Shown: positions 13,723 through 29,567, counted from the first letter of the stretch. The stretch is 29,817 nt of DNA from Patescibacteria group bacterium (GCA_038057175.1 JBBUDS010000001.1:1-29817), one strand, 5' to 3'. Translations and numbers: made by a program. The notes: generated from the letters alone by a model not told the origin.

Positions 13723-13737
13723 TTTTCGTAAGATTAT

Positions 13738-13760: not shown

Positions 13761-13767
13761 ATATTTA

Positions 13768-13937
13768 CTGACAGAACGCCACGAGCGTAAGCTCGTGGAT
13801 GAATGTCAGCCCGTAAGTTGCCCGAAGGGCAACTGGAGGTAAATATATAGACCCTGCGCAGTTGCGCAAGATTCAAATGAGCGCAACTGCGCAGAAGGTA
13901 CGTAAGTACCATGCCCGTAAGGGCGGGGGTCTCTATA
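13768..13937. other. Multi-hairpin non-coding element (structured RNA or IS200/IS605-type MITE)
   Basis: Five stem-loops, including CCACGAGC-GTAA-GCTCGTGG, AGTTGCCC-GAA-GGGCAACT and a perfect 14-bp stem CTGCGCAGTTGCGC/GCGCAACTGCGCAG. Confidence 0.6.
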
Positions 13938-13972
13938 ATTCTGCAGATTAAGTTTGGAAATACGAAGCTGGC

Positions 13973-14000
13973 TTGACATTTTTATATATTTTGTTATTTT
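13973..14000 (+). promoter_or_regulatory. Possible sigma70 promoter
   Basis: TTGACA (13973-13978), 16 bp spacer, TGn-TATTTT. Confidence 0.4.
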
Positions 14001-14039
14001 ATATAGTGAGTTATTTAACATTTTAAACAGGAGTATTGA

Positions 14040-14780
14040 ATGCCAACCAATGCAGATAGAGCAAATAAAATTAGGTTAGGATTTTCAACGGGATGTCTTT
14101 ATAAGTCTGAACCCAGCATAATTCGACGCTTAGAGGTGATAAGGAATATCGGTTGTCGTACGGTTGAACTGGGATTCGTAAAATTGGATGGTTTTTGGGG
14201 TGAGATAGATCAGGTAATTTCACAACCGAAATGCTTGGATGACTTTGATTATGTAAGTCTGCATGCACCAGTTGCGCCATATGGTTTCGATCGTGATTCG
14301 ATGAATATTTTTAGAAAGATTGCCCAGCTACATCTTATTCGGAAATTAAATTTGGTAGTTTTTCATCCGGATGAGGTAAAAGGTTTTGAATTTTTTCCTA
14401 GCTGGGCGAATAGTATAGATTTGCCATTCGCTTTTGAAAATATGGATAACCGAAAGGGATCATATAAAAACCTACTCGATATGCAGGGCTTGTCATGCTG
14501 TGTCTATAGATTCCGGATGGTCTTAGATGTAAATCATGCCTTTTCCAACGATCCGACGATGGGGCTCGCGCGGGATTTTCATCGGTGTTTTAAGGGATCT
14601 ATTGTTCAGACGCATCTTAGCGGATATAAGAATGGCCATGTACCTCTGTTTGAAACCAAGCAAATCGAAATCATAGAGGGCGTACGAAACATAAAAAAGC
14701 CCATTATTATTGAGAGTGTTTTGGAGTCCTATCAGTTATCGCAAGAAAGAAATTATATTTTAGAGGTTCTTGAAAAATAA
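14040..14780 (+). CDS. Xylose-isomerase-like / AP-endonuclease-2 TIM-barrel metalloenzyme
   Basis: LGFSTG, VEL, SLHAP, VVFHP, FENMD, LDVNHA, THLS, HVPL, IIES metal-ligand pattern. RBS AGGAG. Confidence 0.8.
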   Translation: MPTNADRANKIRLGFSTGCLYKSEPSIIRRLEVIRNIGCRTVELGFVKLDGFWGEIDQVISQPKCLDDFDYVSLHAPVAPYGFDRDSMNIFRKIAQLHLIRKLNLVVFHPDEVKGFEFFPSWANSIDLPFAFENMDNRKGSYKNLLDMQGLSCCVYRFRMVLDVNHAFSNDPTMGLARDFHRCFKGSIVQTHLSGYKNGHVPLFETKQIEIIEGVRNIKKPIIIESVLESYQLSQERNYILEVLEK

Positions 14781-14995: not shown

Positions 14996-15553
14996 ATGGA
15001 TTCACTTATTTTTTATATTTTTCTTTTTGTTCATCTTACTTCTTTGATCGTTGGCTTCGGCGCTGTTTTGGTTACCGATTTTTTTGGCCTACTGTGGTTG
15101 CGTAAAAAAATAACCATGGAATTCATGGTTAATATTTCTGGTCAAACTAAAAAATTGATTTGGCTGGGTTGGTTTGGATTGGTATTTTCCGGTATATTTT
15201 TGATAGCTCAAAAGGGATATATAGACAACCTTACTCAGATAAAATTATTTTTTGTGGCCATGATTGGGGTTAATGGTATTTTTCTTCATAAAATCCACAA
15301 GATGTTGGATAGATTTGGTGATAATGATTTACCCCCTCTTTTCAAATTTCGTATTGCTTTGGCAAGTATAGTTTCTCAAGTTGGTTGGTGGGGAGCTATA
15401 TTTATCGGTTTTATTCATCGCCATTGGAGACACGACATTCCTTGGCCGGAAAACCCATGGTTTTATATGTTATTAATTGCCGGCACTTTTATGGTACTCT
15501 TGCTTATTGGCGAATTAATTTTAGGCCACAATAGAAATAATAATCAGAATTGA
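14996..15553 (+). CDS. Integral membrane protein of unknown function
   Basis: About five hydrophobic helices; FLFVHLTSLIVGFGAV start. Confidence 0.75.
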   Translation: MDSLIFYIFLFVHLTSLIVGFGAVLVTDFFGLLWLRKKITMEFMVNISGQTKKLIWLGWFGLVFSGIFLIAQKGYIDNLTQIKLFFVAMIGVNGIFLHKIHKMLDRFGDNDLPPLFKFRIALASIVSQVGWWGAIFIGFIHRHWRHDIPWPENPWFYMLLIAGTFMVLLLIGELILGHNRNNNQN

Positions 15554-16419
15554 TGAATAGAAAAACTATTATTTTAATTACCTTATTTGTGGTTGTCGGC
15601 GCGACCCTATTTTTTTATAAGGATTATTTTTTTGATTTATCACCAAAGCTTTCCGATATAGGGAAAACCGCGGAGATATTAGTAGGGGATATTAAAAAAG
15701 AAATAAGTAATCCACCGCCATTGAGGATGATACGGGAATCAGAACGGTCTTATTTAACACGAGCTGGTACGATTAAATTTACCAACATGCAAAGAGTTAA
15801 TAACGGCGGTCTGGCTCTGTTGTTGGAAAATAGCCAATTAAATGCAGTAGCTTCGCGCAAGGTACAGGATATGTTTAATCGCCAATATTTTGAACATGTT
15901 TCTCCTGACGGTAAGAACGTTGGCGATTTGGTTGACGGTGTTGGTTACGAATACATTGCCGTGGGTGAAAATTTGGCACTCGGTAATTACAAAGACGATC
16001 AGGAGTTAGTACAGGCCTGGATGGATAGTCCCGGTCATAGGGCGAATATTTTAAGTTCTAAGTTTAAAGAGATTGGTGTTGCCGTGGGTAAGGGAATGTT
16101 TGAGGGAAAAGAAACGTGGCTTGCGGTGCAGACCTTTGCTTTGCCGCTAGATTTTTGTCCGCAAGCTGATGATTCATTAAAATCGCAAATAAGCTGGTTA
16201 GAGTTGCAGGTTGCAGAATTAAAGGTTAAGGCAGATTTATTATTAGATGAATTGGATTTATATAAAAAACGGGGAGATAAAGACGGATATAATAAAAAAG
16301 TTGAAGAATATAACGCTGTAGTCAAACAAATTAACGATTTGGTCGCTCAAATTAAGACGGCGGTTATAAAATATAATGATCAGGTTAAAATGTTTAATGC
16401 CTGTATTGCCGAATCGTAA
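15553..16419 (+). CDS. CAP/SCP-domain exported protein with C-terminal coiled coil
   Basis: Signal/TM helix; YFEHVSPDG, GENLA, AWMDSPGHRANIL. ATG overlaps the upstream TGA. Confidence 0.9.
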   Translation: MNRKTIILITLFVVVGATLFFYKDYFFDLSPKLSDIGKTAEILVGDIKKEISNPPPLRMIRESERSYLTRAGTIKFTNMQRVNNGGLALLLENSQLNAVASRKVQDMFNRQYFEHVSPDGKNVGDLVDGVGYEYIAVGENLALGNYKDDQELVQAWMDSPGHRANILSSKFKEIGVAVGKGMFEGKETWLAVQTFALPLDFCPQADDSLKSQISWLELQVAELKVKADLLLDELDLYKKRGDKDGYNKKVEEYNAVVKQINDLVAQIKTAVIKYNDQVKMFNACIAES

Positions 16420-16439: not shown

Positions 16440-16464
16440 AAAACGGAATTAACTTCCGTGTTTT
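16440..16464. terminator. Bidirectional terminator between convergent genes
   Basis: A-run, ACGGAA-TTAAC-TTCCGT, T-run. Confidence 0.5.
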
Positions 16465-16467
16465 ATT

Positions 16468-17694
16468 TTATGCTAGTTGAAGCTTTGAATTCGGGCGATA
16501 CCAGCGTCCAACTTTTCCACATGGTTGTCCGTTCACCTTGACAATGTCAGCTGTAAAATCCTGATTGCCTTTAAGAAGTGAACTCCCGCAGCCGTAAGCA
16601 TCAACCGGCACCTTTTTGTTCTCAAAGTAATTTATTTTTTCTTTAGTAAATCCGCCGGATACCACTATTTTTACATCATCGTGGCCATTCCGATCCAGTA
16701 CGCTTCGTACGTTATTAACTAACATAGGATTAACTCCGGTTGGCTTTTCGCTACCCATTTGATTGTTGCGATCTATGGATAAATCAACCATGTTTTCAGA
16801 TGTGTCTAGTCGAACGCCCCATAGCTTCAAACCTCTTTCCTTGAAGGTATTTGCGACAGAAAGCGCCGTGGTAACGCAATCATTTTTGAAGTCAACCAGA
16901 GAAATACAGGGTTTATCTGGATATTCACTTGCTAACGCCAGAGTTGCTTCTACGGTGTCGCCATGGAAGCAGGCAATCAATGCATGCGGCATGGTGCCAA
17001 GGCCTTTGGTACCCCACCATTCACCCATACTATTGGTGGCAACTCCTTTAATTCCGCCACACATTGCTGCGTAGCCATCGCCGGTTTGAGTTGTGTAATG
17101 ATCAAACCGATCAGCAAAGAAAAGAATCGGTTTTCCATTAGCCGCTTTAACTACATTAGAAACGTTGGTAGCGATTAACGTTCGTCTTGCCAGTATGCCG
17201 AGGTATACTGATTCGAGATGAGCAAAATATTGTGGCAATCCGTTGATCGTCATGACCGTCTCCCACGGACCAATCTTATCGCCGTCGTTTAACGCCATGA
17301 TTTCTAATTCATCAGATTTATCTACCCACAATTGGTAAAGCTCCATTTCAAGTTGCACCGTTTCTTTTAGTGTTTTTTCAATGCCGTGATAATCCTTTTT
17401 GATGTAGAGGACCGAAATTAATCTTTTTTGCTCTTTTAGTTTGTTAAAAATACGATTTGCGCGATTTTGATCTTTAAAAAATCCGCTGCAAAGCTTAAGA
17501 ACGGCAATGGCTTCATCGGTTCCGCAGATAACCGCATCATTTTTTTGGAAAATTTGCATTGTAACCTTTTCGGAGTAACTTCTGTTGGTTAGTATATGTT
17601 TTTCATTACAAAAGTAATCGGCACTATAATGACCAATCCTTATATCTTGTATGGGTATGCCAAATGTTTCAGCCGGTAATCTTTTATTTGCCAT
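16468..17694 (-). CDS. pncB: Nicotinate phosphoribosyltransferase (type II PRTase)
   Basis: MQIFQK, HLESVYLGILARRT, FFADRFDH, GTMPHALIA, SLVDFKND, WGVRLDTS, IVVSGGF, DFTADIV. Coupled to the nicotinamidase gene. Confidence 0.85.
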   Translation of the reverse strand: MANKRLPAETFGIPIQDIRIGHYSADYFCNEKHILTNRSYSEKVTMQIFQKNDAVICGTDEAIAVLKLCSGFFKDQNRANRIFNKLKEQKRLISVLYIKKDYHGIEKTLKETVQLEMELYQLWVDKSDELEIMALNDGDKIGPWETVMTINGLPQYFAHLESVYLGILARRTLIATNVSNVVKAANGKPILFFADRFDHYTTQTGDGYAAMCGGIKGVATNSMGEWWGTKGLGTMPHALIACFHGDTVEATLALASEYPDKPCISLVDFKNDCVTTALSVANTFKERGLKLWGVRLDTSENMVDLSIDRNNQMGSEKPTGVNPMLVNNVRSVLDRNGHDDVKIVVSGGFTKEKINYFENKKVPVDAYGCGSSLLKGNQDFTADIVKVNGQPCGKVGRWYRPNSKLQLA

Positions 17695-18295
17695 TAATGA
17701 TCTCCTTTACACTTGTAATTATAGCTCCAGCTTTTTTCATTTCGTCTATGGCTTTTTGTTCGTCGCCGGGATTAGTATTTATGGCGAGGCAGGCATCAAG
17801 TGCAAGATAAACTTTGTATTTTTCCAGCTTGCAAGCGGTTAGCACTCCTGCTTTCACGCAGTAATTAGTTGCTATTCCCCAAAACACTATTTTTGTAACT
17901 TTATTTTTATCCAGAACTTCCCGTGTTGTTTTATTGTTTTTTGTTTTACCTTCAAACGGGTCGTACCCATGTTGTGTTTTTTCTGTGCCTTTATAAAGTA
18001 TGATTGAGCCAGGCGATATATTTAGTCCGGATAAAAACTCAGCATCCCATGTGTAGGCGATTCCATGTGGCGGCCAAGGACCAATGGGTTGGAAGTGATC
18101 AGAATCAGGTGGATGCCAATCTGCTGAAAATATTATTAATGAGCCAGCTCTTTTGGCATGAGAGACCAATTTATTACCTTGTTTAAGTATTTTTTTAGGA
18201 GATCCTACGTATAGTCCTCCCTGTGAATGACCAAAGCAATTTTGTAGATCAACGCCGAATATTGCGCAATCTTTAAAATTAAATCTAACACTCAT
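17684..18295 (-). CDS. pncA: Nicotinamidase (isochorismatase family)
   Basis: Catalytic Asp (GVDLQNCF), DWHPPDSDHF, WPPH, Lys (YKG), Cys (GIATNYCV). Confidence 0.9.
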   Translation of the reverse strand: MSVRFNFKDCAIFGVDLQNCFGHSQGGLYVGSPKKILKQGNKLVSHAKRAGSLIIFSADWHPPDSDHFQPIGPWPPHGIAYTWDAEFLSGLNISPGSIILYKGTEKTQHGYDPFEGKTKNNKTTREVLDKNKVTKIVFWGIATNYCVKAGVLTACKLEKYKVYLALDACLAINTNPGDEQKAIDEMKKAGAIITSVKEIINGK

Positions 18296-18837
18296 ATTTT
18301 ACCTCTTTTAATTTTGGTAATGCCAGTTTTTGTTTGAAGTATTTGAAATAATTTTTTATGGCTTGGCCAACCTATTTCCGGCGGGTTTTTAATATTAAAC
18401 CACGCAATTTCCTGATTTTCTTTCGGGTCATTATTTTTAATTTTACCTTGGGTTGTTACCCAATAGAAAAATAGAAAATGTCCCGGACTTCTTGGATCTT
18501 CATTAGACTGAATGAATTTGATAAACGTCGCTTTCTTAACGATAAGGCCGACTTCTTGTCTAATCTCTCTCTTTAAGGCATCTATGGGACTCTCGCCGTA
18601 CTCTACGAATCCAGCTGGGAATCCCCAGGTATTTTTATGTGGTTCGCGATTGCGTTTTACAAGCAACACCTTATTTTTTCTAAATATTAAACCAACCGAA
18701 GCTTGACCAACAGATGGATGATGCGTCCAATTACAATATGTGCAAACTTTTTTTTGTACGCCATCTATTTTTAGAGTCGTTAATCTGGAACTGCAATATG
18801 GGCAAAAGATATAATTGGATTCAATAATTTTTGTCAT
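18292..18837 (-). CDS. NUDIX hydrolase with N-terminal zinc ribbon
   Basis: FCPYC...CTYC; Nudix box GFVEYGESPIDALKREIRQEVGL. ATG at 18837 has a GGAGGA RBS (the track uses a longer TTG start at 18915). Confidence 0.9.
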   Translation of the reverse strand: MTKIIESNYIFCPYCSSRLTTLKIDGVQKKVCTYCNWTHHPSVGQASVGLIFRKNKVLLVKRNREPHKNTWGFPAGFVEYGESPIDALKREIRQEVGLIVKKATFIKFIQSNEDPRSPGHFLFFYWVTTQGKIKNNDPKENQEIAWFNIKNPPEIGWPSHKKLFQILQTKTGITKIKRGKI

Positions 18838-18886
18838 TATTCCTCCCGGAGTTTCTGTAAAAATTTTAAAGTTCTTAAGCTCTAAG

Positions 18887-18952
18887 ATAATAGCATACCG
18901 TTTAGCGTAAGTCAATTTTTTAATTGACTTACGCCACGTTTTCTGTTATTAC
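18887..18952. promoter_or_regulatory. Back-to-back divergent promoters built on a 13-bp inverted repeat
   Basis: GCGTAAGTCAATT-TTTT-AATTGACTTACGC (18905-18934). Each arm gives TTGACT with a 17 bp spacer to TGn-TATTAC (+) or TGn-TATTAT (-). Confidence 0.75.
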
Positions 18953-18990
18953 ATAAATAAAGTTTTTTAATAATTATAAATGAGAGGGTT

Positions 18991-21483
18991 ATGAATAACC
19001 TAGCAGGATTAAAGGTTTCTTTGTGTCAAATGCCGGTTGTTGCTGGTAGGCCAGATCTAAATACCGCCTACATTAAAAATGAAATAAAATCTGCGGCAAG
19101 TCGCGGATCTGATATTATTATTTTTCCTGAAATGGCAGTGTCTGGCTATGTTCTGGGTGATAAATTCGAAGACGAAAGATTTGCGGTAGATGTTAATAAA
19201 CATAACAGGTTGATCTGTGAGGCGTCTGATGTGAGCTTGTCCGATACAGAAGGCAAGATCGCTATTATTTTTGGTAGTTATACAATTGATTCCAGAAAGA
19301 GTGGTCGTGATGGACGAACGCGTAAGCATAACATAGCAATCGTTGCACAGGGCGGAGAATTTATTGGTAAGACCATAAAAACTAACAATCCCGAATACAG
19401 TATTTTTGATGACGATAGGCACTTCTATTCGATGACGAATTTAATACTCGAAGATAGTAGTCTGGGAAATGCTGAGGAATTGAACCTAGATGATTACTTC
19501 AAGACGTTTCCCGTTGAAACAAGATTAGGCATTATCACCGTCGGAGTAATTATCTGTGAGGATGCGTGGTGGAGGGATTATCCATATAGCCCCGGTAAGA
19601 TTCTTGCAGAGAAGGGGATTGATTTGCTCGTGATTATAATGTCTTCGCCTTGGACTTGGCAGAAAAGGCGTAAGCGCCATCAGATTATTAAGGAGCTTGC
19701 AGTGTCGTGCAGAGATGCCAGTTGTCGAGTACCGATTGTTGCGGTGGGCAATACTGGTGTTCAAAATAATGTTAAGAATCTGATTATTTTTGACGGCTTT
19801 GCAGCTAGCTACAATGAAGATGGCGAGCTGTTATATGAGGCAGAGCCGTATGCCGAGCAAACTTTTGATGTAGTGCTTAATAAAGATATGACGCGATTGC
19901 CGAATGAGGATACGGATGATTCAAAAGAATTATTTGACGCTCTAAATTATGCGGGAAGGAAGTATGTAGAGAGCCTGGCACCCTTAAATAGGAAGATAGT
20001 CATAGGAATTAGTGGTGGAATTGACTCAAGTGCCAGTGCGGCATTTTGGGCTAATGTTGTAGGGCCAAAAAATGTCTATGGCATAAGTATGCCCGGACCA
20101 TTTACAAGTGATGAAACCAAGGCGCTTGGAGTCGAGCTCGCTGGTAACTTAGGGATCAATTTCGAAGTTATACCGGTTACCGATGTTGCGGATTCGATCG
20201 CTCAAAAGATTGGCATAGAAAGAGGTACCGATGCTTATGGAAATATTCTATCGCGTGTTCGTAGAGAGATCCTATCAGCAAAGGCAGAAAAAGTTGGCGG
20301 CGTTTTTACTTGTAATGCAAATAAAGTTGAATCTGCCTTTGGATACACAACTCGATACGGTGATAATGCGGGGTTTTTGACGATATTTGGTGACTGTCTA
20401 AAAAGAGAAGTTTATCAGATCGGTGATTATATGAATCGAATTGTTTACAGTCGTGAGGTGATACCGTTAAGATGCTTTACTATAAGACCAACAGCCGAAC
20501 TTAAAAATAAACAAAAAGATCCGTTCTATTATGGTAATCTCGAGGGCTATAATTATCACGATCAATTAACTCGTGCTTGGACAGAGTTTAGATGGGATCC
20601 AGAAATGACCATTGAGCATTATATAAAGGGTACATTAGAGTCGGAATTTAAATTAAACAAAGGACATCTTGCCTTGTTGTTTTCTACGCCACACGAATTC
20701 GTGAAAGATTTGGAGAGGTGTTGGCGGTTGTGGCATGTAGCCGTTTCTAAGCGAGGTGAGGGACCGCCTATACCAAGAGTTAGCAGGAGATCGTTTGGTT
20801 TCGATTTGCGTGAGTCAATGATGTCGCCCAATCTAACACTCAGATATCATGACTTAAAAGTTCTATCTTTAGCCAGACCAATCAAACGGAGACGCGTAGT
20901 TATATTTGGTGGTAGTTTTAATCCTGCATCTAGACACCATATTTTGTTAGCGCAAAGATTATCAAAGGAATTCGATCTGGTTGTTGTTGTTCCTTGTAGT
21001 GGCGGACGCAAGGATAAAACACTTAGTATGGTTTCTGATGCCGATAGAGAGGGGATGTGCAAATTAGCATTTTTTGATCTAGATAAAATTAGACTTGATA
21101 TGTTTGATTTGAGCGGTGGGTTGTTCACTCCAACATGGAAAATGCAGGAAATTTATCAGAATGAATTTCCCGATGCACAAATTTGGCATGTCGTCGGTGG
21201 TGATATTATCGCCGGCGGTCGTGATAATAACTCAGAGATACATAGATTATGGGACAAGGGTGTTGAGATTTGGGAAGGTCTTAATTTTGCTGTTATAACT
21301 CGCCCGGGCTACGTGGTGGAAAGACAAGATTTGCCGCCATCAACCAAGCTCATTGAAGTTGATGGGGTGGTTGGCTCTGGTACTTTGATTCGTCGGTTAA
21401 TTGCTGAAGGTAAGTCAATCGCTCGTTTAGTGACGCCAGAAGTAGCGGAATATATTAAAAATAATAAATTATATATAAAATAA
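18991..21483 (+). CDS. nadE: Glutamine-dependent NAD+ synthetase fused to a C-terminal NadD-like nucleotidyltransferase
   Basis: Nitrilase domain IIFPEM...ICEDAW; synthetase GISGGIDSS, GYTTRYGD, PTAEL; C-terminal FGGSFNP..HH, VGGD, RPGY, SGTLIR. Confidence 0.88.
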   Translation: MNNLAGLKVSLCQMPVVAGRPDLNTAYIKNEIKSAASRGSDIIIFPEMAVSGYVLGDKFEDERFAVDVNKHNRLICEASDVSLSDTEGKIAIIFGSYTIDSRKSGRDGRTRKHNIAIVAQGGEFIGKTIKTNNPEYSIFDDDRHFYSMTNLILEDSSLGNAEELNLDDYFKTFPVETRLGIITVGVIICEDAWWRDYPYSPGKILAEKGIDLLVIIMSSPWTWQKRRKRHQIIKELAVSCRDASCRVPIVAVGNTGVQNNVKNLIIFDGFAASYNEDGELLYEAEPYAEQTFDVVLNKDMTRLPNEDTDDSKELFDALNYAGRKYVESLAPLNRKIVIGISGGIDSSASAAFWANVVGPKNVYGISMPGPFTSDETKALGVELAGNLGINFEVIPVTDVADSIAQKIGIERGTDAYGNILSRVRREILSAKAEKVGGVFTCNANKVESAFGYTTRYGDNAGFLTIFGDCLKREVYQIGDYMNRIVYSREVIPLRCFTIRPTAELKNKQKDPFYYGNLEGYNYHDQLTRAWTEFRWDPEMTIEHYIKGTLESEFKLNKGHLALLFSTPHEFVKDLERCWRLWHVAVSKRGEGPPIPRVSRRSFGFDLRESMMSPNLTLRYHDLKVLSLARPIKRRRVVIFGGSFNPASRHHILLAQRLSKEFDLVVVVPCSGGRKDKTLSMVSDADREGMCKLAFFDLDKIRLDMFDLSGGLFTPTWKMQEIYQNEFPDAQIWHVVGGDIIAGGRDNNSEIHRLWDKGVEIWEGLNFAVITRPGYVVERQDLPPSTKLIEVDGVVGSGTLIRRLIAEGKSIARLVTPEVAEYIKNNKLYIK

Positions 21484-21503
21484 AACCCAGATCTCTGGGT
21501 TTT
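21482..21503. terminator. Bidirectional intrinsic terminator
   Basis: AAAACCCAGA-TC-TCTGGGTTTT between convergent nadE and AAA genes. Confidence 0.75.
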
Positions 21504-21507
21504 TATA

Positions 21508-23478
21508 TTATTTAATTTTAAATTGAGGATAACCGCTTAAGTCAACGATACGACGTTCTGTGATTTGCTCGAATAGCGTGTCTATATTTTCAATAAGGTT
21601 TCGTTTTCGGATGTCAATTAAGAGTTTTACTATATTCGGTGGCAATAATTCTCTCGATGATGATGCGAGGAGACTAACAAGCGTCATGTAGTCTATATCT
21701 GTTTGACTTGAGCTAGGGATTGAATCTTCAATCGCTTTCATTAGCGCTGGTCCATCTATAATTATTTCATTTTCTTCTTGTCGGTCAGTGCTTGCAAAAT
21801 TTAGAGATGATAATGTTATAGCTTCGATGTCTGCGCCAGATCGGCCATCTACCAACTTCGCATATTTAGAAAAATCAATAATAGATGTTTTTATGGCGTA
21901 TCGCTTGAACATGACTTTAAAAATTGCTGGTATTTCTTCAACTGATGGCATGGGAAGCAGTATTCGTTTATCGCTTCTGCCACTGCGCATCAGTGCCGCA
22001 TCCATTCTATCTGGCCTATTGGTGCAGTTAATTATAATTACCTTACCGCGTATTTTGGGGTCAGATAAGAATGTCATCCATGATCTCATCAACCTTTCAG
22101 ATACACCAGAATCTCCCTTTGGAGAGTTGCGGTCAGCTTCACCCAAATCAGCTTCGTCGTTCATGATAACGACTGGGACTAGAGACCATAAACCACTTAA
22201 AAGTTTTTCCATTCTGGCTTCTGATTCACCAACCCACATTGATCTGATGTTCTTAATTTTAATAAAGTGGAAGCCAGCTTCTTTGGCTAATGCCTCAACG
22301 AATGCAGTCTTGCCTGTTCCGGGGGGGCCCATGAGAGTTACGCCCATTGGTACGCGTCTAATGTCGCCACTTTTTATAGCTCGAATGACTAATTTGAAAT
22401 ATTTTTTCAGGTGTTCCATTCCGCCAATATCTTCAAGCCCTTTATCAGCATTGACCACTTCCATGACGTCACTATATTCGTTAGACAATATTTGGTATTT
22501 TTTTTCTTTTACGGTTTTTAGATTTAGCGGAACGCTGGTTTTTTTTGTTTGAATCAGTAGTTCTTTGATTTGATTAAGGCCAAGCCCTTGTGTGGCGATG
22601 GTCAGAGTGTTGATGTCTAGTGTCTCGTCCAGTAGATACAGTTCAGAGAAGTTTGCCAACTTATTACGCAGTGCATCTATCTGATCGGCAACATACCGAC
22701 GATTCGTGTCATTTTTTTGTTTTGGAAGTTTTATATTCCAGTCCCTGAGTCTAGCAAGAATATTTTTTTGTTCTCCAGTGCCCTGAGTGTATGTTCTAAT
22801 AAAATTCTTTCTTTCTTCTTCGGTCGGTTTTACAATAAGGGAGGTTTGTATTTCATTTCCGCTTTGGCGCAACTCATTAGAAATTTTGGAAGCTTGATCG
22901 GTTACGAGTAATACGATGCTCTTCTTTTCTCTAATGGTTTCGCTCTGGCTCCAATTACGGAGTCTTTCGGTGGCTATCCTATCTGCTGGTGATAAAGACA
23001 CTCCGCCGCCACTGTTTGGAGCGATAAAGTGTGCGGAGTTTAATATTATGGCGACTTCAGATTCTTTTCGTAAAACTTTATCCATTAGTTCCAGACATAC
23101 TAACAGTTCGGTTGGTAGGGGCTGTCTGTTAGATAGGTCGGCTCTTGCGGCGGCAACCGGATCATTTGCGGGTGAATTTGGCTTTACAATGTCTGCGGCT
23201 TTTTTAAATTTTGTTTCCATTTCTGACGTTAGAAACGTAATGCCTGAGGCAATATTGTAGAAGATTACAATTTTAGTATCTTTCAAAATTCTTCGCCAAA
23301 ACTCCCTAAATTTTATGTAGAATTTGTTATTTTGATTATCATCTGGATTTAAAACCAAACAATTGATATCGCCGTGCAAGATAAATACAGAACTTGTCCC
23401 CGCTTCGTATGGTTCAAGAATATGATTTGTGAACCAAGATGGTAATTTTTCTCTCGAAATGTTTTTTGCTAAATTCAT
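21508..23478 (-). CDS. AAA+ ATPase (classic clade, Ycf46/CDC48-like) with a degenerate N-terminal AAA-like domain
   Basis: DIGGMEHLK, GPPGTGKT, MWVGESE, MNDEAD, TNRPDRMDAALMRSGRSD, GRSGADIE. N-terminal FILHGDIN region lacks an intact Walker A. Confidence 0.88.
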   Translation of the reverse strand: MNLAKNISREKLPSWFTNHILEPYEAGTSSVFILHGDINCLVLNPDDNQNNKFYIKFREFWRRILKDTKIVIFYNIASGITFLTSEMETKFKKAADIVKPNSPANDPVAAARADLSNRQPLPTELLVCLELMDKVLRKESEVAIILNSAHFIAPNSGGGVSLSPADRIATERLRNWSQSETIREKKSIVLLVTDQASKISNELRQSGNEIQTSLIVKPTEEERKNFIRTYTQGTGEQKNILARLRDWNIKLPKQKNDTNRRYVADQIDALRNKLANFSELYLLDETLDINTLTIATQGLGLNQIKELLIQTKKTSVPLNLKTVKEKKYQILSNEYSDVMEVVNADKGLEDIGGMEHLKKYFKLVIRAIKSGDIRRVPMGVTLMGPPGTGKTAFVEALAKEAGFHFIKIKNIRSMWVGESEARMEKLLSGLWSLVPVVIMNDEADLGEADRNSPKGDSGVSERLMRSWMTFLSDPKIRGKVIIINCTNRPDRMDAALMRSGRSDKRILLPMPSVEEIPAIFKVMFKRYAIKTSIIDFSKYAKLVDGRSGADIEAITLSSLNFASTDRQEENEIIIDGPALMKAIEDSIPSSSQTDIDYMTLVSLLASSSRELLPPNIVKLLIDIRKRNLIENIDTLFEQITERRIVDLSGYPQFKIK

Positions 23479-23488
23479 GCGTCCTTCC

Positions 23489-24199
23489 TTATCCTATCTC
23501 GTTATGACCATGATGGTGCGAGTGATTGTGTGTATGACTATGACCGGTGTGTTCTTCAACACTGCCGGGTATTGGTTGTCCGTTAACGGGTGAGTCGGGT
23601 AGTGCAATTTTTACTCCTAACCTTTGTGCTAATGCGATAAATTTTATTTTTTCTTTTTCAAGCTCTGATTTACTAGTGAAGTGTTCAAATACTATTTCGC
23701 CATTGCTGTCGGGATTTTTTGATATGCGTATGTATTTACAGGGATGCGACTTGCCTTCTTCTTCGGCAACTAAGGTTAGTGCTTTAGTACTATTTTCCCC
23801 GGGATTTAAAATATTTGCCTTATAGCCAAGTAGCCGGGTTACTATTTTTAAAACCTCCATTTGCCAATGATTAATTACGCGGTTTGTTGTTTTTTCAGCT
23901 TCATTTTTTTCAGAACTGTTTGTATAAAATGATTCGGCAATAATGTTGCCGTCTTCACTAATCGAGAAATTGATACTTTCCGATGGCTGCAGTTCTAGTG
24001 TTTTTTTGAGGGCTTCTTCCAGTAATGGTTTAATATTTAACTTTTGTATCCAGCTTAGAAACACCTGATCGTTTACTCCTAATTTTTCCAGTAAATCCTG
24101 ATCTATACTAGGAGAGGGCATCTTTTTCTTAAATCTTTGAGGTGTAGGCTGGGGTATACGAATAGGGGCGTAGGTTTTATAACCAATATTGCAAGGCAT
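23489..24199 (-). CDS. Hypothetical protein, N-terminal MPC and His-rich C-terminus; co-transcribed with the AAA ATPase
   Basis: 10-bp gap to the ATPase; tail HTGHSHTHNHSHHHGH. Confidence 0.8.
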   Translation of the reverse strand: MPCNIGYKTYAPIRIPQPTPQRFKKKMPSPSIDQDLLEKLGVNDQVFLSWIQKLNIKPLLEEALKKTLELQPSESINFSISEDGNIIAESFYTNSSEKNEAEKTTNRVINHWQMEVLKIVTRLLGYKANILNPGENSTKALTLVAEEEGKSHPCKYIRISKNPDSNGEIVFEHFTSKSELEKEKIKFIALAQRLGVKIALPDSPVNGQPIPGSVEEHTGHSHTHNHSHHHGHNEIG

Positions 24200-24261
24200 A
24201 GGTTGTTTTCCTGTTAAGTTTTTTAAGAACTCAATAGTTACTGTTTAATATAAAAATTATT

Positions 24262-24306
24262 ATATGTCAATAGATAATTGACATATTGTCGTATCTTAGT
24301 TAGGAT
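24262..24306. promoter_or_regulatory. Divergent promoter region with a 10-bp inverted repeat
   Basis: ATATGTCAAT-AGATA-ATTGACATAT. On the + strand: TTGACA, 17 bp spacer, TAGGAT (24301-24306). Confidence 0.6.
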
Positions 24307-24390
24307 AGTGCATGTTCTTTAAAAAATAGATTGCTATTAAGTTATCGAGATTAGCATTCTTTATATTGATAATTCACGAAGGGAGACTTT

Positions 24391-25590
24391 ATGAATGAAA
24401 AAGCTGTTATGGAAGTTTGTAGAAAAATTACAGAAGCCGCCAATCCAGAAGAAATATTTGGGAGTCTTGGCGGTAAGGGCCAGAATAGAGGCGATAAGTT
24501 AAAAGCTCTCGAAAGAGAGTTTAATAAATTTAAACAAGTTCTTGCTATAGATCTCCCATCTGTTAGTCAGGCATTACTTGAAAAAGTTGACGAGACAAGA
24601 GTTGTTCTTGATGATCTGTATGAATGGGCGCGGACGATTGTCGTTGGCGAAGATTTGTCGGAAAGAGAATCCGTTGAAGATTCGGAAGAGACCGAGTCTA
24701 GACCAGCCGGTCTATTTAAAGAAATTACGATTCAAACTAAAAAACGCCCCTATTATATTACCGGTAGCCTCGCTAGTGGCGATTTAGCTTCGGTGTATAA
24801 AGGATATTACCTTGAGGGCACAACACCTATTGATGTTGCAATTAAGATTATTGATGACCCTGCCGATAACTCGTTTGCCAAGAAGGAAATTGATGCGTTG
24901 GGAATATTGCATGCCGAACCAAACAACGAAGGCAAGCAGTTAAAGCATTTACCGCGGTCAGTAGATCAATTTATAACTACCGATAATCAGCAAGGTAATA
25001 TACTGACCTATCTTGACGGATATACCTTAGAACAAGTTAGGGCAAAATATAAAGGAGGCATTGATCGTAAGCACATGGTTTGGATGCTTAGCCGTGGACT
25101 TAGCCTTTTAGGATACGCGCACAGTAAGGGTGTAATTCATGGCAACATTACTCCATCTAATTGGATGATTCGACCAATGGATCACAATGCGTGGATTATA
25201 GATTGGGGTTATTCCGTTATTGATCACATTAATAAGGGTGCTAAATTTTCGGTTTTTGATCCCGATTTCAGTGCCCCAGAGATAAAGCAAAGATCAACTT
25301 TATTATCGGTATCGAAATGTTCCGATCAGGCAGGGCTAATGTATCTATATGCTCTGTTTTCCGCGGATATTTACTCTGTAGGTAAATGCATGATATACAT
25401 ACTTGGCGGTGATATAGGGACCGACAAGATGCCGGATAGTGTTGAGAAACCATTGCAGAGATTTTTGGACGGCCTAGTTAATAAGAGCCCACTTCAACGT
25501 CCACGTAATGCGTGGGAAGTTCATTCACAGTTAAGGAAATTAATTGTATCCCTTTGGGGAGAAAGAAAATTTTTAGAATTTAAAATGTAA
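24391..25590 (+). CDS. Hanks-type Ser/Thr kinase-fold protein, probable pseudokinase, with N-terminal helical domain
   Basis: LASGDLASVYKG Gly-loop, VAIK, KEIDAL, HGNITPSN (catalytic Asp replaced by Asn), DWG, FSAPE, ADIYSVG. Confidence 0.85.
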   Translation: MNEKAVMEVCRKITEAANPEEIFGSLGGKGQNRGDKLKALEREFNKFKQVLAIDLPSVSQALLEKVDETRVVLDDLYEWARTIVVGEDLSERESVEDSEETESRPAGLFKEITIQTKKRPYYITGSLASGDLASVYKGYYLEGTTPIDVAIKIIDDPADNSFAKKEIDALGILHAEPNNEGKQLKHLPRSVDQFITTDNQQGNILTYLDGYTLEQVRAKYKGGIDRKHMVWMLSRGLSLLGYAHSKGVIHGNITPSNWMIRPMDHNAWIIDWGYSVIDHINKGAKFSVFDPDFSAPEIKQRSTLLSVSKCSDQAGLMYLYALFSADIYSVGKCMIYILGGDIGTDKMPDSVEKPLQRFLDGLVNKSPLQRPRNAWEVHSQLRKLIVSLWGERKFLEFKM

Positions 25591-25604
25591 AAAAGGAGGC
25601 AATC

Positions 25605-27074
25605 ATGGGTGGTGGAAATTACAATGTTGATGTTGCAGAGAGATTTAGAGAGTCTACTACTGAGGATACTATATTTAGAAGCCAAGGTTTATCGGCTAGA
25701 GAAAAGTGTGATCCAAGCTTAAATATAAAAGGTAAGATACGGGAATGCTGTGATTCGTTGGAACATCCAAACACTACGCCTATTGTTGTTGTTATGGATT
25801 TTACCTCATCTCGTGGTGATGATGCTAAGGTAATTTTTGCTAAAGCACCAATGTTTTTTGGACAGATGAAAATGCGTAATTATGTGCCCGATCCTGAAAT
25901 TTGTTGGATGGGCATAGGTGATGCAACGTGTGACAAGGCACCACTTCAAGTTGCCCAATTTGAGTCTGATAATAAGTTGGATGATGAATTGGCCAAGATG
26001 TGGCTCGAGGGTGGCGGCGGAGGAACGGGTCAAGAATCTTATGAATTAGCCGCGTACGCCATTGTTAAAAAAATGAAGCTTGATGCAGTTACGAAGCGCA
26101 ACAAGAAAGCCCTTGTATTCTTCCTGATTGATGAGGGATTTTATCCCGTTATTTCAAAATCTCAGGTGAAGAAAGTTTTTGGTGATGACTTGTCAGCCGA
26201 TATCCCTTCTGAACAGATTTTTGCCGAACTGAATAATATGGCTGACGTCTTTGTTATTTATCCAAAGAAATCATGGCAAGAAAGAAAGGCCGATATTGAT
26301 GTCGAGATGCGTGAGCGCCTTGAGCAGGCTGGCGGAAGATTCCGAGATGTTGATATTAGGGCTTCATTGCGTTGGGATACCTATGATGATCTCGACCTCC
26401 ATGTTGTTTGCCCCGGAGGTGAAGTCTGGTATGCAAATAAAAAATGTTCTAACGGGGAATTAGACGTTGATCGAAATGCCGGTGGTCCTCAAACAAGAAA
26501 ACCGGTAGAAAACATCCGTTGGGCGAAGGGCGAAGCGCCTAAAGGAAGGTATAAAGTTTTTGTTCAAAATTATGCTTTTCATGAGGATGAAAGAAATCCA
26601 ATACCGTTTCTTGTCGAGCTGGAGGTAAACGGTAAAATTCAAAAATTTGAAGGGGTCTCTGCTTCTAAGAAAGAAAATGGTTCGAGAAGTAATATTACCG
26701 CGTTTGAATTTAATTATGATCCTGCCGAGAGACAGATAAGTTCAGACGAATCCGATCTTTATAAGGGTTACGATGATGCGTTAATTAAAGCCCAGTGGGC
26801 GAATGTGATTCCAGCGGATAATATTCTTGAGATCGATGATCCTAAGGTGATTATTGATGTGATGCTCGGTGCCGTTGCGATTAATTCCGGTTCGAGCCTC
26901 GATGGTTATTTGGTTGACATGGAGGGCCGCGGTCAGACTGCAAGGCGGCGTGAAGAGACAACCGCCGCTCTCTCTGGATTGGCGGATAAGGCCAATACCG
27001 TTAAGGTTGATGTGGGCAAGAGGTTGCCCAAGATTACGACAAAGAAAAAGACTAGTAAGATAAAGAGGCTGTAA
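25605..27074 (+). CDS. vWA-domain protein with an inserted YfaP/DUF2135-like domain
   Basis: MGGG start, MIDAS-like DFTSS, GIGDATCD, LQVAQFE, LEGGGGG..QESYELA, FLIDE. Insert DDLDLHVVCP...LDVDRN...VENIRW...GRYKVFVQNY. Confidence 0.85.
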   Translation: MGGGNYNVDVAERFRESTTEDTIFRSQGLSAREKCDPSLNIKGKIRECCDSLEHPNTTPIVVVMDFTSSRGDDAKVIFAKAPMFFGQMKMRNYVPDPEICWMGIGDATCDKAPLQVAQFESDNKLDDELAKMWLEGGGGGTGQESYELAAYAIVKKMKLDAVTKRNKKALVFFLIDEGFYPVISKSQVKKVFGDDLSADIPSEQIFAELNNMADVFVIYPKKSWQERKADIDVEMRERLEQAGGRFRDVDIRASLRWDTYDDLDLHVVCPGGEVWYANKKCSNGELDVDRNAGGPQTRKPVENIRWAKGEAPKGRYKVFVQNYAFHEDERNPIPFLVELEVNGKIQKFEGVSASKKENGSRSNITAFEFNYDPAERQISSDESDLYKGYDDALIKAQWANVIPADNILEIDDPKVIIDVMLGAVAINSGSSLDGYLVDMEGRGQTARRREETTAALSGLADKANTVKVDVGKRLPKITTKKKTSKIKRL

Positions 27075-27090
27075 GTTAGATGTATACTGC

Positions 27091-27114
27091 AACTCTGCGA
27101 CTGCGGAGTTTTTT
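27091..27114 (+). terminator. Intrinsic terminator
   Basis: AACTCTGC-GACT-GCGGAGTT plus T-run. Confidence 0.7.
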
Positions 27115-27217
27115 ATTGTTTGAATTCATGAACGGTCAGTTGGTCGTATATTTGACAAATATAGTATTATCATGTATTGATTAGATAAATTTGCTCATTA
27201 AAATACGGAGATAAATA

Positions 27218-28162
27218 ATGTTTATTTCAACTCTACCGCCGATTCATATGGAGGGCCTAATGGAGGAAATGATTGCGCATTCTTTAGTTGACGGCGTTCG
27301 TTATAATATTGGCGGCTATTCTGCCTATAAACCTAAAGAAACTCTTGAGCGTATCCTTGGTTTAACCGAGGAATATAAAAAGAAGTTTTGGCTAGATCTT
27401 AAGGGTCGGCAATTACGTATATCTCGTTGGACAATGGGAAGTTTGGGTAAGGCTACTCTCAATCATAAAATTCAGGTTGACACACCTGCACGCGTGTATT
27501 TTAGGGGTAACGATTGGTCGGAAATAAAGGTTGTTAATGGCGATACTATTTTTGTTGACCCTTTGCCTAAAAATGCTGTCGGTGAAGGTCAGGCTATAAA
27601 TATTCATGGCGATAATCTAAAAATTTTTGGTTACTTAACCGACGATGATAGGGAATATATTGATGCTGCCGCTAAGTTAGGCATGCACAGCTTCATGCTT
27701 TCTTTTGTTGAGGGCCTTGAGGACGCAGAGGAATTTGAGCAAGCTTTGGGGTATGGATACAGGGGTATGGGTGTTGACGAAGTGTTTAAGATTGAATCGC
27801 CGAAGGGGATGGAATTTGTACGCCAACTAGGAAGCAGTGGCATCCCATCTGAATTATATACGCTTATGGCGGCACGTGATGATTGGTTTACGAATACTAT
27901 TCCCAGACCGCAGATTCTTAAAGATTTGGAAGATATGGTAAAAATTGATCCTAAGGCCATAGTGGCATCACATATATTTGGCGGGCTAGAGGGGGCAGGC
28001 ATGGTTACTATGGCAGATCTGTCAGACCTATATCTTATGCGCCATTTTGGTTATAAAAATTTTATGTTATCGGATGGCATATCCAAACGACATTTCAAGA
28101 AGGCCGTGGAGGCTTGGGAAGAATTTTTAGATTATTTTCCGATGGAGGAGCGAAATGAGTAG
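27218..28162 (+). CDS. Divergent pyruvate-kinase-like protein (A and B domains, no C domain)
   Basis: VRYN, LDLKGRQLR, MLSFVE, FKIES, MAARDD, FMLSD appear in order against the PK motifs RLN, LDTKGPEIR, LSFV, KIE, MVARGD, VMLSG. Confidence 0.75.
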   Translation: MFISTLPPIHMEGLMEEMIAHSLVDGVRYNIGGYSAYKPKETLERILGLTEEYKKKFWLDLKGRQLRISRWTMGSLGKATLNHKIQVDTPARVYFRGNDWSEIKVVNGDTIFVDPLPKNAVGEGQAINIHGDNLKIFGYLTDDDREYIDAAAKLGMHSFMLSFVEGLEDAEEFEQALGYGYRGMGVDEVFKIESPKGMEFVRQLGSSGIPSELYTLMAARDDWFTNTIPRPQILKDLEDMVKIDPKAIVASHIFGGLEGAGMVTMADLSDLYLMRHFGYKNFMLSDGISKRHFKKAVEAWEEFLDYFPMEERNE

Positions 28163-29567
28163 GAGAGCGTTTTTAATTGCCGGTATTGGTTATGGCGATG
28201 AAGGCAAGGGTAGTATTGTTGACTACCTTAGTTTTAAACACAAGCCGCACACCATCATACGTTTTAATGGTGGTTCACAAGCGATGCATCATGTTGTTAA
28301 ACCGGATGGAACGGTTCATGGTTTTCGACAAATAGGTTCCGGAATGTTTGCTAATCCAAGCGTACGCACCTATCTTTCTAAATTTATGCTGGTGGACCCG
28401 TTTTTTATTCACGAAGAGATAAACGAATTATCGGTAGAAAAAAACATCAAATATTCATTTGGACAGGTTATAGTTGATCGCGAGTGTGTAGTGATCACAC
28501 CATTTCATAGATTAGTTGGACAAATGCGTGAGTTAGTTAGGGACGATAAACGGATTGGCAGTTGTGGTTGCGGCGTTGGAGAGGCGATGTTTGATTACAA
28601 TTTAGTAGGAGATGGCGTTCTTCTAGCGGGCGATTTGGCGGATAAACAAAAAACACTATATAAGCTAAGACGGTTACTGATTTCAAAAATTGATATCGCA
28701 GAACAGTTGGTTGACGTAGAGTATTCGCGCAGATTTACCAAGAGACTTCTGCAAGAAAAATTATTGGAGTTGTATGATTATCGCAAGTGGTTAGATAGGT
28801 TAACTCAAAAATATCTTGATTTTTTTAAATTCGGATTTTTAAAGTTTGGAGACGAGAAGAAGCTTAAGCATATTCTGAGTAAAAATGGTACTGTGATTTT
28901 TGAAGGAGCTCAGGGTGCATTACTAGATCCGCGTTATGGATTTGCTCCTTATGTTACAAAAACACGAATGAGTTTTGAAAATGCAAACACTCTACTGGAT
29001 GAATCTGGCTATAATGGTGATTGTACCAGAATTGGCGTAATGCGTGGTTACAGTACTCGTCATGGTCCCGGACCTTTTATAACAGAAGATCCTAGATTTA
29101 ATAGGCGTGTTTCAGAATTACACAATGTAATGAATGCATGGCAGGGTCCGTTTAGAATTGGTTGGCCTGACATTGTCGCATTGAAATACGGAATAGATAT
29201 AGTTGGTGGCGTCGACTACTTGGCTGTTACCAGCATGGATCGCATCAAGGATTTTAATAAAATACGCGTTTGTGAAGCATATGATACTGACCTTGTCAGT
29301 ACAAACCATATTTTAAATAAATATTTTGAATTGCATGCTGGCAGTAAGATTAATAGGATAACAAGAATTAAGGTTTTGCCTGAAGGTAAGGTTGGGAAAG
29401 GCGAACTTACAAAATTGCTCAAGAGATGCAGGCCAGTTTATAAAAATATATATCATCATGATTGTAGATATGTGGATTACTTAAGGCATAGTCTTGGAGT
29501 TGAAGTAGGAATTATATCTCATGGCCCGACACGTAAAGATAAAATTGAGTTGATCCCCGCATGTTAA
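28155..29567 (+). CDS. Divergent adenylosuccinate-synthetase-like (PurA-fold) GTP-dependent ligase
   Basis: GYGDEGKG, RFNGGSQAMH, EGAQGALLD, RHGPGPFITE, RIGWPD, SHGPTR. Overlaps the upstream stop. Confidence 0.85.
   Translation: MSRRAFLIAGIGYGDEGKGSIVDYLSFKHKPHTIIRFNGGSQAMHHVVKPDGTVHGFRQIGSGMFANPSVRTYLSKFMLVDPFFIHEEINELSVEKNIKYSFGQVIVDRECVVITPFHRLVGQMRELVRDDKRIGSCGCGVGEAMFDYNLVGDGVLLAGDLADKQKTLYKLRRLLISKIDIAEQLVDVEYSRRFTKRLLQEKLLELYDYRKWLDRLTQKYLDFFKFGFLKFGDEKKLKHILSKNGTVIFEGAQGALLDPRYGFAPYVTKTRMSFENANTLLDESGYNGDCTRIGVMRGYSTRHGPGPFITEDPRFNRRVSELHNVMNAWQGPFRIGWPDIVALKYGIDIVGGVDYLAVTSMDRIKDFNKIRVCEAYDTDLVSTNHILNKYFELHAGSKINRITRIKVLPEGKVGKGELTKLLKRCRPVYKNIYHHDCRYVDYLRHSLGVEVGIISHGPTRKDKIELIPAC

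Follow-up and report, generated by a model that had tools for sequence, protein, structure and literature searches.

Do ten tightly packed genes on a small bacterial contig form one unit built around nicotinamide adenine dinucleotide (NAD+), or do they merely lie side by side? The window analysed here is the whole 29.8-kb contig C1 (29,817 nucleotides; JBBUDS010000001.1) of a Patescibacteria group bacterium (GCA_038057175.1) whose 695-kb genome is 88% complete, and the genes in question occupy positions 16,468 to 29,567. A reading made from the sequence alone had described them as ten contiguous genes in five units with two palindromic divergent promoters, and this description is borne out by a listing of the open reading frames (ORFs), by Pfam and NCBIfam scans of the window proteins and by the palindromes themselves. 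We conclude, with a probability of about one half, that the ten genes are one accessory, probably co-regulated and likely transferred island, in which the Preiss-Handler route to NAD+ is joined to a cassette tied to NAD and adenosine diphosphate (ADP)-ribose metabolism. The cassette encodes, in order, a kinase-fold protein, a vWA protein, a pyruvate kinase (PK)-like protein and a PurA-like protein. No published description of it was found, two comparative surveys of jumbo phages and of viral NAD and ADP-ribose systems included, and it is widespread in bacteria and large phages. The features of the island are as follows.

16468-17694, minus strand: PncB, nicotinate phosphoribosyltransferase (NCBIfam equivalog PRK07188, 390 bits against a cut-off of 378; Pfam QRPTase_N and QRPTase_C)
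17684-18295, minus strand: PncA-like nicotinamidase of the isochorismatase fold (Pfam Isochorismatase, E 5e-22)
18292-18915 as annotated, minus strand: Zn-ribbon Nudix hydrolase (Pfam NUDIX, E 1.9e-22; CxxC...CxxC motifs and Nudix box)
18905-18934, no strand: palindrome 1, in the divergent region between the Nudix and NadE-NadD genes (13-bp arms, core GTCAAT-N6-ATTGAC)
18991-21483, plus strand: glutamine-dependent NAD synthetase (CN hydrolase and NadE) fused to a NadD-like adenylyltransferase, 830 residues (Pfam, NCBIfam)
21482-21503, no strand: bidirectional terminator-like hairpin between the convergent NadE-NadD and AAA genes (hairpin prediction)
21508-23478, minus strand: classic-clade AAA+ ATPase with a 330-residue N-terminal domain (Pfam AAA, E 1.4e-27)
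23489-24199, minus strand: 236-residue AAA partner, p236, with a His-rich C-terminal tail (no Pfam, NCBIfam or PADLOC match)
24262-24286, no strand: palindrome 2, in the divergent region between the p236 and kinase genes (10-bp arms, core GTCAAT-N5-ATTGAC)
24391-25590, plus strand: putative pseudokinase with a degenerate N-terminal J-like domain (Pfam Pkinase, E 5.8e-10)
25605-27074, plus strand: vWA protein with a metal ion-dependent adhesion site (MIDAS), 489 residues, beta-sandwich and helical C-domain (MIDAS DxTxS motif and fold; no Pfam match)
27091-27110, plus strand: terminator-like hairpin, possible attenuator, between the vWA and PK-like genes (hairpin prediction)
27218-28162, plus strand: short PK-like barrel without the C domain, 314 residues (Pfam PK, E 8e-4, below cut-off)
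28155-29567, plus strand: PurA-fold ligase with remodelled substrate pockets (Pfam Adenylsucc_synt, E 2.6e-62)

From gene overlaps of 11 nt (PncB/PncA), 4 nt and 8 nt (PK-like/PurA-like), together with the terminator at 21482-21503 and the hairpin at 27091-27110, we infer five transcription units: PncB-PncA-Nudix, the NadE-NadD fusion, the AAA+ ATPase with p236, pseudokinase-vWA, and PK-like-PurA-like. The arrangement is also found outside this assembly, in that three groundwater metagenome studies yield Logan contigs that tile it in pieces at ~100% identity, and at least one contig bridges each of the junctions between the NAD genes and the AAA gene, across AAA-p236-kinase, between kinase and vWA, and across vWA-PK-PurA.

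Recurrent association of the cassette with NAD genes

To survey the cassette we scanned GTDB, one genome per species, with an alignment of the 489-residue vWA family and fetched 80 loci; the phylum of the window was sampled with 401 genomes, and viruses with 80 IMG/VR contigs, the counts of viral neighbours referring to 82 loci. The gene family is large: at least 564 GTDB stretches code for a vWA relative, and matches among metagenomic proteins run into the thousands. The order kinase, vWA, PK-like (when present) and PurA-like recurs in fetched loci of many lineages: Acidobacteriota, several Patescibacteria (Candidate Phyla Radiation, CPR), Leptospiraceae, Myxococcota, Schekmanbacteria, Riflebacteria, Gammaproteobacteria and Actinoplanes/Micromonospora. 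The vWA and PurA-like genes are paired in 159 of the 160 loci with intact flanks. Both are present in all 80 viral contigs, many of them longer than 100 kb, and a kinase is detectable in about one third. The cassette is also present in the well-studied Bxz1-type mycobacteriophages: next to the PurA-like gene, Mycobacterium phage Mangeria encodes a kinase that shares 27% identity with the window kinase (E 3e-30), as well as a hypothetical protein that shares 41% with the window vWA protein over the N-terminal half of the latter (E 2e-46). Within the phylum of the window, the vWA gene occurs in 4 of the 401 genomes.

The sequence-only reading had treated the NAD genes and the cassette as one NAD/nucleotide unit. 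As a genomic association this stands, since adjacency to NAD genes recurs in several phyla and in phages. Directly upstream of the kinase gene, and on its strand, there is a NadE-NadD fusion or a lone NadD gene at L003, L011, L012, L013/14, L015, L016, L018, L020 and L028/34, as well as at the close relatives L002/L058. These are 11 of the 49 non-actinomycete loci and represent about eight lineages from two phyla (Patescibacteria and Acidobacteriota), spanning Paceibacterota, two Blastocatellia, Moranbacteria, Parcubacteria, Saccharibacteria and Falkowbacteria, and the PK-like gene is present in every one of them that has intact flanks. PncA homologues lie near the cassette in five loci (L013-L016, L058) and in the viral locus L151, which has NrtR as well. 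Among actinomycetes, 29 of the 31 Actinoplanes/Micromonospora loci have a Nudix-cluster gene immediately upstream, as does the Parcubacteria locus L015, and in the three representatives that were scanned (L060, L065 and L015) this gene encodes NrtR (Nudix plus NrtR_WHD), a regulator of NAD metabolism that senses ADP-ribose. Overall, 35 of the 80 genome loci have a Nudix or NrtR gene at the equivalent position. The commonest neighbours of the viral cassettes are NrtR (11/82 loci) and, downstream, NAMPT (11/82), followed by RlaP, Ro60-type TROVE-vWA, ligase and phosphoesterase genes. Thus, the link to NAD genes is recurrent, not local. In a group of viral loci (L107, L110-L112, L117, L128, L131, L159 and L160) the vWA-PurA-like pair is found among RNA-repair-type genes, which encode an RlaP nucleotidyltransferase, an ATP-dependent ligase, a Ro60-like TROVE-vWA protein and a calcineurin-like phosphoesterase.

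Gene trees give a similar picture. Trees of vWA, PurA-like, PK-like and NadD from eleven loci agree on their supported shallow clades (window with L002, L028 with L034, and L011 near L020), while the fifth tree, that of the kinase, is distorted by a very long L020 branch and recovers only L028 with L034. The discordance that would have separated the NAD genes from the cassette is therefore not seen at this depth. In the vWA and NadD trees, cassettes of Acidobacteriota (Blastocatellia) nest among those of CPR bacteria. The genomes G401 and G402 of free-living Blastocatellia also hold a canonical NadD (163-169 bits), a second NadE, a PK (405-415 bits) and a PurA (501-609 bits), so the cassette enzymes are extra paralogues there.

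Within the window, all four enzyme families of the Preiss-Handler route (PncA, PncB, NadD and NadE) are matched by Pfam and NCBIfam, as had been claimed. Only PncB exceeds its equivalog cut-off; the family matches of PncA, NadD and NadE stay below theirs, the best NCBIfam match of the PncA-like protein being nicotinamidase/pyrazinamidase at 100 bits against a cut-off of 174. The NadE-NadD fusion is the sole NadD or NadE in the genome, and likewise in the other CPR genomes that carry it. Its NadD domain shares 40-57% identity with the NadD proteins found next to the cassette in other lineages. Its motif reads GGSFNPASRHH, with GGSFNPxxxHH in the cassette-linked relatives compared with HxGH in canonical NadD. 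This form resembles GSFNPITxxH of eukaryotic NMNAT. The premise that NAD synthesis is uncommon in this phylum is upheld by the sample, in which NadD-like genes were found in 8 of the 401 genomes.

The two palindromes provide a further tie between the units. Their shared core, GTCAAT-N5/6-ATTGAC, is present in exactly two copies across the 695 kb of the genome, where 0.25 would be expected by chance, and each of the two divergent intergenic regions of the island holds one. In L002, on a related contig, the orthologous regions retain GTCAA...TTGAC with other spacings (4 to 9 nt). The half-sites coincide with -35-like TTGAC(A/T) hexamers of divergent promoter-like sites: palindrome 1 overlaps a -35-like TTGACT, and the right half of palindrome 2 is the -35 element of a TTGACA-17-TAGGAT promoter-like site at 24278. 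The palindromes may therefore be back-to-back promoters, an operator, or both, and from these sequence features co-regulation of the island appears possible and, in our view, probable. The annotated TTG start of the Nudix gene overlaps palindrome 1, and its true start is likely Met27, at ~18837. NrtR control in this genome was considered and rejected, as the Nudix protein lacks the NrtR winged helix or any other helix-turn-helix and a genome-wide search for NrtR_WHD returned a best PF21906 match of only E 0.09, with no NrtR-type regulator found. An Rfam scan of the window for riboswitches matched only a transfer RNA (tRNA). Contigs from two runs of a further groundwater study depart from the window at 23661 and 24207 and continue with identical sequences unlike its own. 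This suggests that a strain occurs alongside in which the 5' half of p236 and part of the divergent promoter region differ.

Several observations weigh against reading the ten genes as a single island. No NAD gene lies within 10 kb of the cassette in 38 of the 49 non-actinomycete loci and in about 60 of the 82 viral loci, and the other three cassette carriers in the phylum sample all lack a NadD match. The NAD genes of the window may also be mere housekeeping neighbours, because they are the only ones present in the genome. The deep nodes of the gene trees are poorly supported. Because the half-sites equal -35 hexamers and their spacing varies in L002, the palindromes may be back-to-back promoters instead of an operator, and the genome scan for NrtR-type proteins identified no regulator for them; moreover, the hairpin at 27091-27110 and a weak promoter-like site at 27177 split the vWA gene from the PK-like gene. 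The sequencing runs that hold island sequence are all of DNA, with no transcript run among the matches. Lastly, the substrate, nucleophile and product of the PurA-like enzyme, which are discussed below, are guesses.

The same observations can be turned into an explanation by chance, in which a NAD salvage cluster, an AAA+ pair and an accessory cassette merely stand next to each other. Unrelated genes do lie close together in small genomes, NAD genes are missing from most cassette loci, L173 and L176 have the AAA gene but no cassette, and the palindromes can be read as -35 boxes. Nevertheless, chance would have to account for NAD genes recurring beside the cassette in two bacterial phyla, in actinomycetes (as NrtR) and in phages, for the identity between the fusion NadD and cassette-adjacent NadD elsewhere, and for a NadD tree that shares its shallow clades with the cassette trees. 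It would also have to place the core palindrome only at the two divergent promoters of the island, and to bring together three components that are each rare in the phylum yet adjacent here. We consider chance adjacency unlikely, and the least probable of the explanations weighed in this study.

Protein families of the island

The sequence-only reading had the PurA-like enzyme moving inosine monophosphate (IMP) towards adenosine monophosphate (AMP), a claim that does not fit the protein. The protein is the product of the only PF00709 gene in the genome and scores 169.5 bits against the NCBIfam purA model TIGR00184, whose cut-off is 395.6. Its family has a signature of its own (GD[AE]GKG, GGxQAxH, GSCGxG, FEGAQG, TRHGxGP, WQGxFRxG and TxLD) and keeps the equivalents of D13, K16, H41 and Q224 together with the guanine-recognition Asp of (N/T)KxD; the window protein retains GDEGKG, the His of GGSQAMHH, and FEGAQG. 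The contacts to the IMP 5'-phosphate are changed throughout the family, with Asn38 replaced by an invariant Gln, Thr128-Thr129 by Ser-Cys, and Arg143 lost. The aspartate loop TTGRxRR, which holds Thr300/301, Arg303 and Arg305, has likewise become WQGxFR (NAWQGPFR in the window), in which R303 is replaced and one later Arg is kept. Since the aspartate and IMP-phosphate contacts are lost and no purB was found in the 88% complete genome, the enzyme does not appear to catalyse the plain IMP-to-AMP step. A housekeeping PurA was rejected on the same grounds, as well as on the sub-equivalog score and the coexistence of canonical PurA elsewhere. PurZ was rejected too, as its model NF038379 gives 48.6 bits against a cut-off of 300 and covers only residues 7-147. 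The protein is closer to unnamed proteins from many phyla and to a Bxz1-type mycobacteriophage gene (203 bits) than to solved PurA structures (at most 111 bits). Phage PurA-like genes (Mangeria L006 5998-7326; PHROG phrog_1211) are labelled '2-aminooxy adenylosuccinate synthetase' in RefSeq and PHROGs. This label looks like a garbled PurZ name propagated by annotation, given that the gene retains the catalytic Asp and scores below the PurZ cut-off.

The PK-like protein falls short of the PK models (19 bits against a cut-off of 30 in Pfam, 33 against 432 in NCBIfam), while its atlas structure fits PK families at template modelling (TM) scores of 0.8-0.88. By alignment, its family motifs R.N, D.K.RQLR, LSFVE, KIES and AA.DD correspond to the phosphoenolpyruvate (PEP)-binding, metal-binding and catalytic Lys, Glu and Asp residues of PK. 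The gene is present in 22 of 87 cellular loci, each time between the vWA and PurA-like genes, and a canonical PK coexists with it in G401-G404.

That the kinase-fold protein is a pseudokinase, that its partner is a vWA protein and that the PurA pocket is altered had been read from the sequence alone, and all three hold at the level of the families. The catalytic loop of the window kinase reads HGN in place of HRD. Of 76 family members, 67 have N or A at the position of the catalytic Asp and 6 have D, whereas 73 keep the VAIK Lys and 68 the DFG Asp, a pattern from which we judge the protein to be catalytically dead. An N-terminal DnaJ domain is fused to 21 of 43 kinase relatives (Pfam DnaJ, best E 2e-25); the window kinase has no Pfam DnaJ match and shows the same helix pattern, with AID at the HPD position. 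A role as a sensor, which had been suggested for this protein, is not favoured, as the usual J-domain fusion points to chaperoning instead.

In the vWA family the MIDAS residues D65-x-T67-x-S69 are invariant. An AlphaFold2 model of the window protein (mean predicted local distance difference test, pLDDT, 79) has the integrin beta-I plus hybrid domain as its top Foldseek match (E 2e-9), and among PDB entries integrin beta-I, SpaC and ArnB are matched at E 2e-9 to 2e-7 with a probability of 1.00. Residues 1-31 and 471-489 are modelled as disordered yet hold the most strongly conserved motifs (MGGGxYDxDV... and ...RL), and about 90% of 173 cellular and viral homologues start with MG[GS]. At L009, L047, L052 and L057, two or three vWA paralogues surround a single PurA-like gene, as in the order vWA-PurA-like-kinase-vWA-PK-like at L009, which indicates that the vWA partner has been duplicated repeatedly.

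The AAA+ ATPase is of the classic Cdc48/FtsH type and not of the MoxR type according to NCBIfam. Its N-terminal domain was found in 1 of the 401 genomes of the phylum and in 233 clusters among 1.8 billion representatives. The proposal that the AAA+ pair is a module of the island stands only in part: the AAA gene accompanies the cassette in three architectures, namely divergent upstream (window and L002/L058), downstream (L003) and on one strand (L175), but it is facultative, as its two cassette-free loci (L173 and L176) indicate. The p236 gene precedes the AAA gene at L002, L172 and L175, and p236 has an atlas resemblance to DUF2997/DUF1257 clusters, which is a lead only. At L175 (GCA_964372325.1 contig, 7310-14773) the order on one strand is p236a-p236b-AAA-vWA-vWA-PK-like-PurA-like, without a kinase gene, where p236a and p236b are small genes homologous to the halves of p236. 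The HPD motif is missing in all three kinase-bearing AAA loci and also in several loci without AAA. The pair may be a facultative remodelling add-on that could stand in for Hsp70 recruitment, an idea whose basis is three or four lineages.

Proposed function and rival explanations

How might such an island work? We suggest that consumption of NAD+ would lead to its expression, whereupon PncA, PncB, NadD and NadE would rebuild NAD+ from nicotinamide and the Nudix enzyme would remove ADP-ribose or NAD-derived dinucleotides. The PurA-like enzyme would use guanosine triphosphate (GTP) to phosphorylate a 6-oxopurine-type lactam on a nucleotide other than free IMP, possibly a dinucleotide, given that the 5'-phosphate contacts are lost. 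An amine other than aspartate would then displace the phosphate, and this might be ammonia or the invariant N-terminal glycine of the obligatory vWA partner. The translationally coupled PK-like enzyme would regenerate GTP from guanosine diphosphate and PEP, and the pseudokinase would serve as a co-chaperone or scaffold for the vWA-ligase complex; in the window it has lost the Hsp70-recruiting HPD, for which the adjoining AAA+ pair may substitute. Put together, a PurA-fold ligase with a PK-like GTP regenerator would aminate or conjugate the purine ring of a NAD-related dinucleotide, or attach a nucleotide to the N-terminal glycine of the vWA protein, as part of an ADP-ribose-responsive repair, protection or re-routing of the NAD+ and adenine pool in conflict. 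We offer this chemistry tentatively, as a possibility that is well short of even odds.

A simpler view, closer to that of the sequence-only reading, is that the island serves counter-defence or self-rescue, restoring NAD+ and adenine nucleotides after the action of NADases (TIR, SIR2), ADP-ribosylating toxins or adenosine-nucleotide deaminases. The PurA-like enzyme would re-aminate hypoxanthine nucleotides with ammonia, for which no PurB is needed, and the PK-like enzyme would remake nucleoside triphosphates. The loss of the aspartate pocket and the failure to find PurB agree with this, as do the glutaminase-bearing NadE that adjoins the cassette, the sporadic and transfer-like distribution, and the phage vWA-PurA-like pair that adjoins NrtR and NAMPT, the latter being half of the published phage pathway NARP2 (see below). 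However, a plain salvage enzyme would need neither an obligatory vWA partner nor a pseudokinase, the IMP 5'-phosphate contacts are lost as well, and actinomycetes carry the cassette on the chromosome, as a stable NrtR operon. In addition, the inspected loci showed no NADase, deaminase or defence gene next to the cassette, and PADLOC gave only generic Nudix, AAA and kinase matches. We regard self-rescue as the whole explanation as doubtful, although pool rescue after NADase attack is a reasonable sub-case of the broader function proposed above. The near-strict pairing in 159 of 160 loci could also be read as protein-nucleotide conjugation pure and simple, in which the PurA-like enzyme joins C6 of a purine nucleotide to the alpha-amine of the vWA N-terminal glycine after removal of Met, and the resulting adaptor is handled by Hsp70 (through the J domain) or AAA+. 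This would give a role to the prevalent MG[GS] start, to the 31 N-terminal residues that are conserved yet modelled as disordered, to the conserved W, Q and F residues that replace the aspartate pocket, and to the chaperone-type partners of the pair. The evidence is wholly circumstantial, about 10% of vWA partners lack the MG start, and neither the NAD linkage nor the PK-like gene is explained, so that conjugation by itself is improbable, only slightly less so than chance adjacency. The NAD-linked ligase is the favoured, if tentative, account of the function of the island.

The remainder of the window holds further genes. Upstream of the island are a HIT-family nucleotide hydrolase (12909-13379) and a CAP/SCP-domain protein (15550-16419), and between the latter and PncB a hairpin at 16443-16459 resembles a bidirectional terminator. 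The stretch 8846-12726, which lies downstream of the tRNA at 8474-8544, has a lower guanine-plus-cytosine content (0.33-0.35) and encodes a SLOG/LOG-type protein (Pfam LDcluster4), a methyltransferase and three glycosyltransferases (GT2, GT1-like and GT9). LOG enzymes act on N6-substituted AMP, and the LOG-type gene would be of interest if the product of the PurA-like enzyme were such a compound. The contig starts with a gene for an 813-residue HerA/TraG/VirD4-type coupling ATPase (1099-3540; DUF87, TrwB_AAD_bind, TraG-D_C), which is possibly part of a DNA-transfer apparatus.

Comparison with known systems

What the window adds to the wider family is a full NAD route, a shared promoter palindrome, a link between the PK-like and NadD genes, and the AAA-pair architectures. 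It is the fullest version of the cassette, with the complete nicotinamide-to-NAD+ route, the PK-like helper and the AAA+ pair, and thus offers a concrete gene set for co-expression. It also bears on CPR ecology, as a rare capacity to make NAD shares a block with the cassette, and looks co-acquired with it, in a tiny-genome groundwater bacterium.

Among characterized enzymes the closest comparison is with PurA itself (EC 6.3.4.4; E. coli 1ADE/1GIM, PF00709), with which the PurA-like protein shares the fold, the P-loop Asp, His41, Gln224 and the guanine-contacting Asp. It differs in its altered aspartate and IMP pockets, its sub-cut-off score, its near-strict pairing with vWA and its occurrence as an extra paralogue beside canonical PurA. 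A PurA fold that keeps its catalytic residues and has new pockets has repeatedly been wired to the sensing and salvage of NAD+ and ADP-ribose. PurZ, the succino-amino-deoxyadenylate synthase of Z-genome phages, is likewise a phage-borne PurA paralogue; the cassette was not seen in a DatZ/MazZ context.

Coupling of a MIDAS vWA protein to a kinase fold, a J domain or AAA+ is a feature that the cassette shares with the MoxR-vWA systems and with the kinase-phosphatase-vWA 'TerY-P' triad, the latter reportedly described by Anantharaman and colleagues in 2012. In contrast to these, the AAA protein of the cassette is not MoxR, the kinase appears dead, there is no PP2C phosphatase, and a PurA-fold protein is the constant partner. 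Nor could the island be assigned to a known anti-phage defence system: PADLOC gave only generic matches (PD-T4-6/MkoA for the kinase, IetA for the AAA protein, PDC-S07 for the Nudix protein), and the vWA, PK-like, PurA-like and p236 proteins had zero matches in PADLOC-DB.

A regulatory parallel is provided by the NrtR regulons. Rodionov et al. (2008, PMC2330246) list the NrtR-regulated genes nrtX-nrtY, of unknown function, from Streptomyces, Frankia, Proteus and Hahella, and these might be a match for the vWA and PurA-like genes. NrtR lies directly upstream of the cassette in actinomycetes, a Parcubacteria locus and phages, whereas the window has a Zn-ribbon Nudix protein without a DNA-binding domain, and its palindromes do not match the GT-N7-AC core of NrtR boxes.

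Finally, NAD+ and ADP-ribose metabolism is central to current research on phage-bacterium immunity, where the nearest relatives in logic are the NAD+ reconstitution pathways NARP1-3. NARP1 consists of Adps and Namat, NARP2 of NAMPT and NMNAT (bioRxiv 10.1101/2024.02.11.579819), and NARP3 of PnuC and NadR. They are phage-borne accessory sets that centre on the rebuilding of NAD+, and in phages NAMPT adjoins the cassette. NARP1-3 include no PurA-fold, PK-fold, vWA or pseudokinase protein, and the route of the island is instead PncA-PncB-NadD-NadE. By Pfam and NCBIfam, no defining gene of NARP1-3 is matched in the island, and NAMPT was seen beside the cassette only in viral loci. If the function proposed here is correct, a purine-conjugating cassette would be a NAD-centred counter-measure, with a chemistry unlike that of NARP1-3, that serves both cells and large phages.

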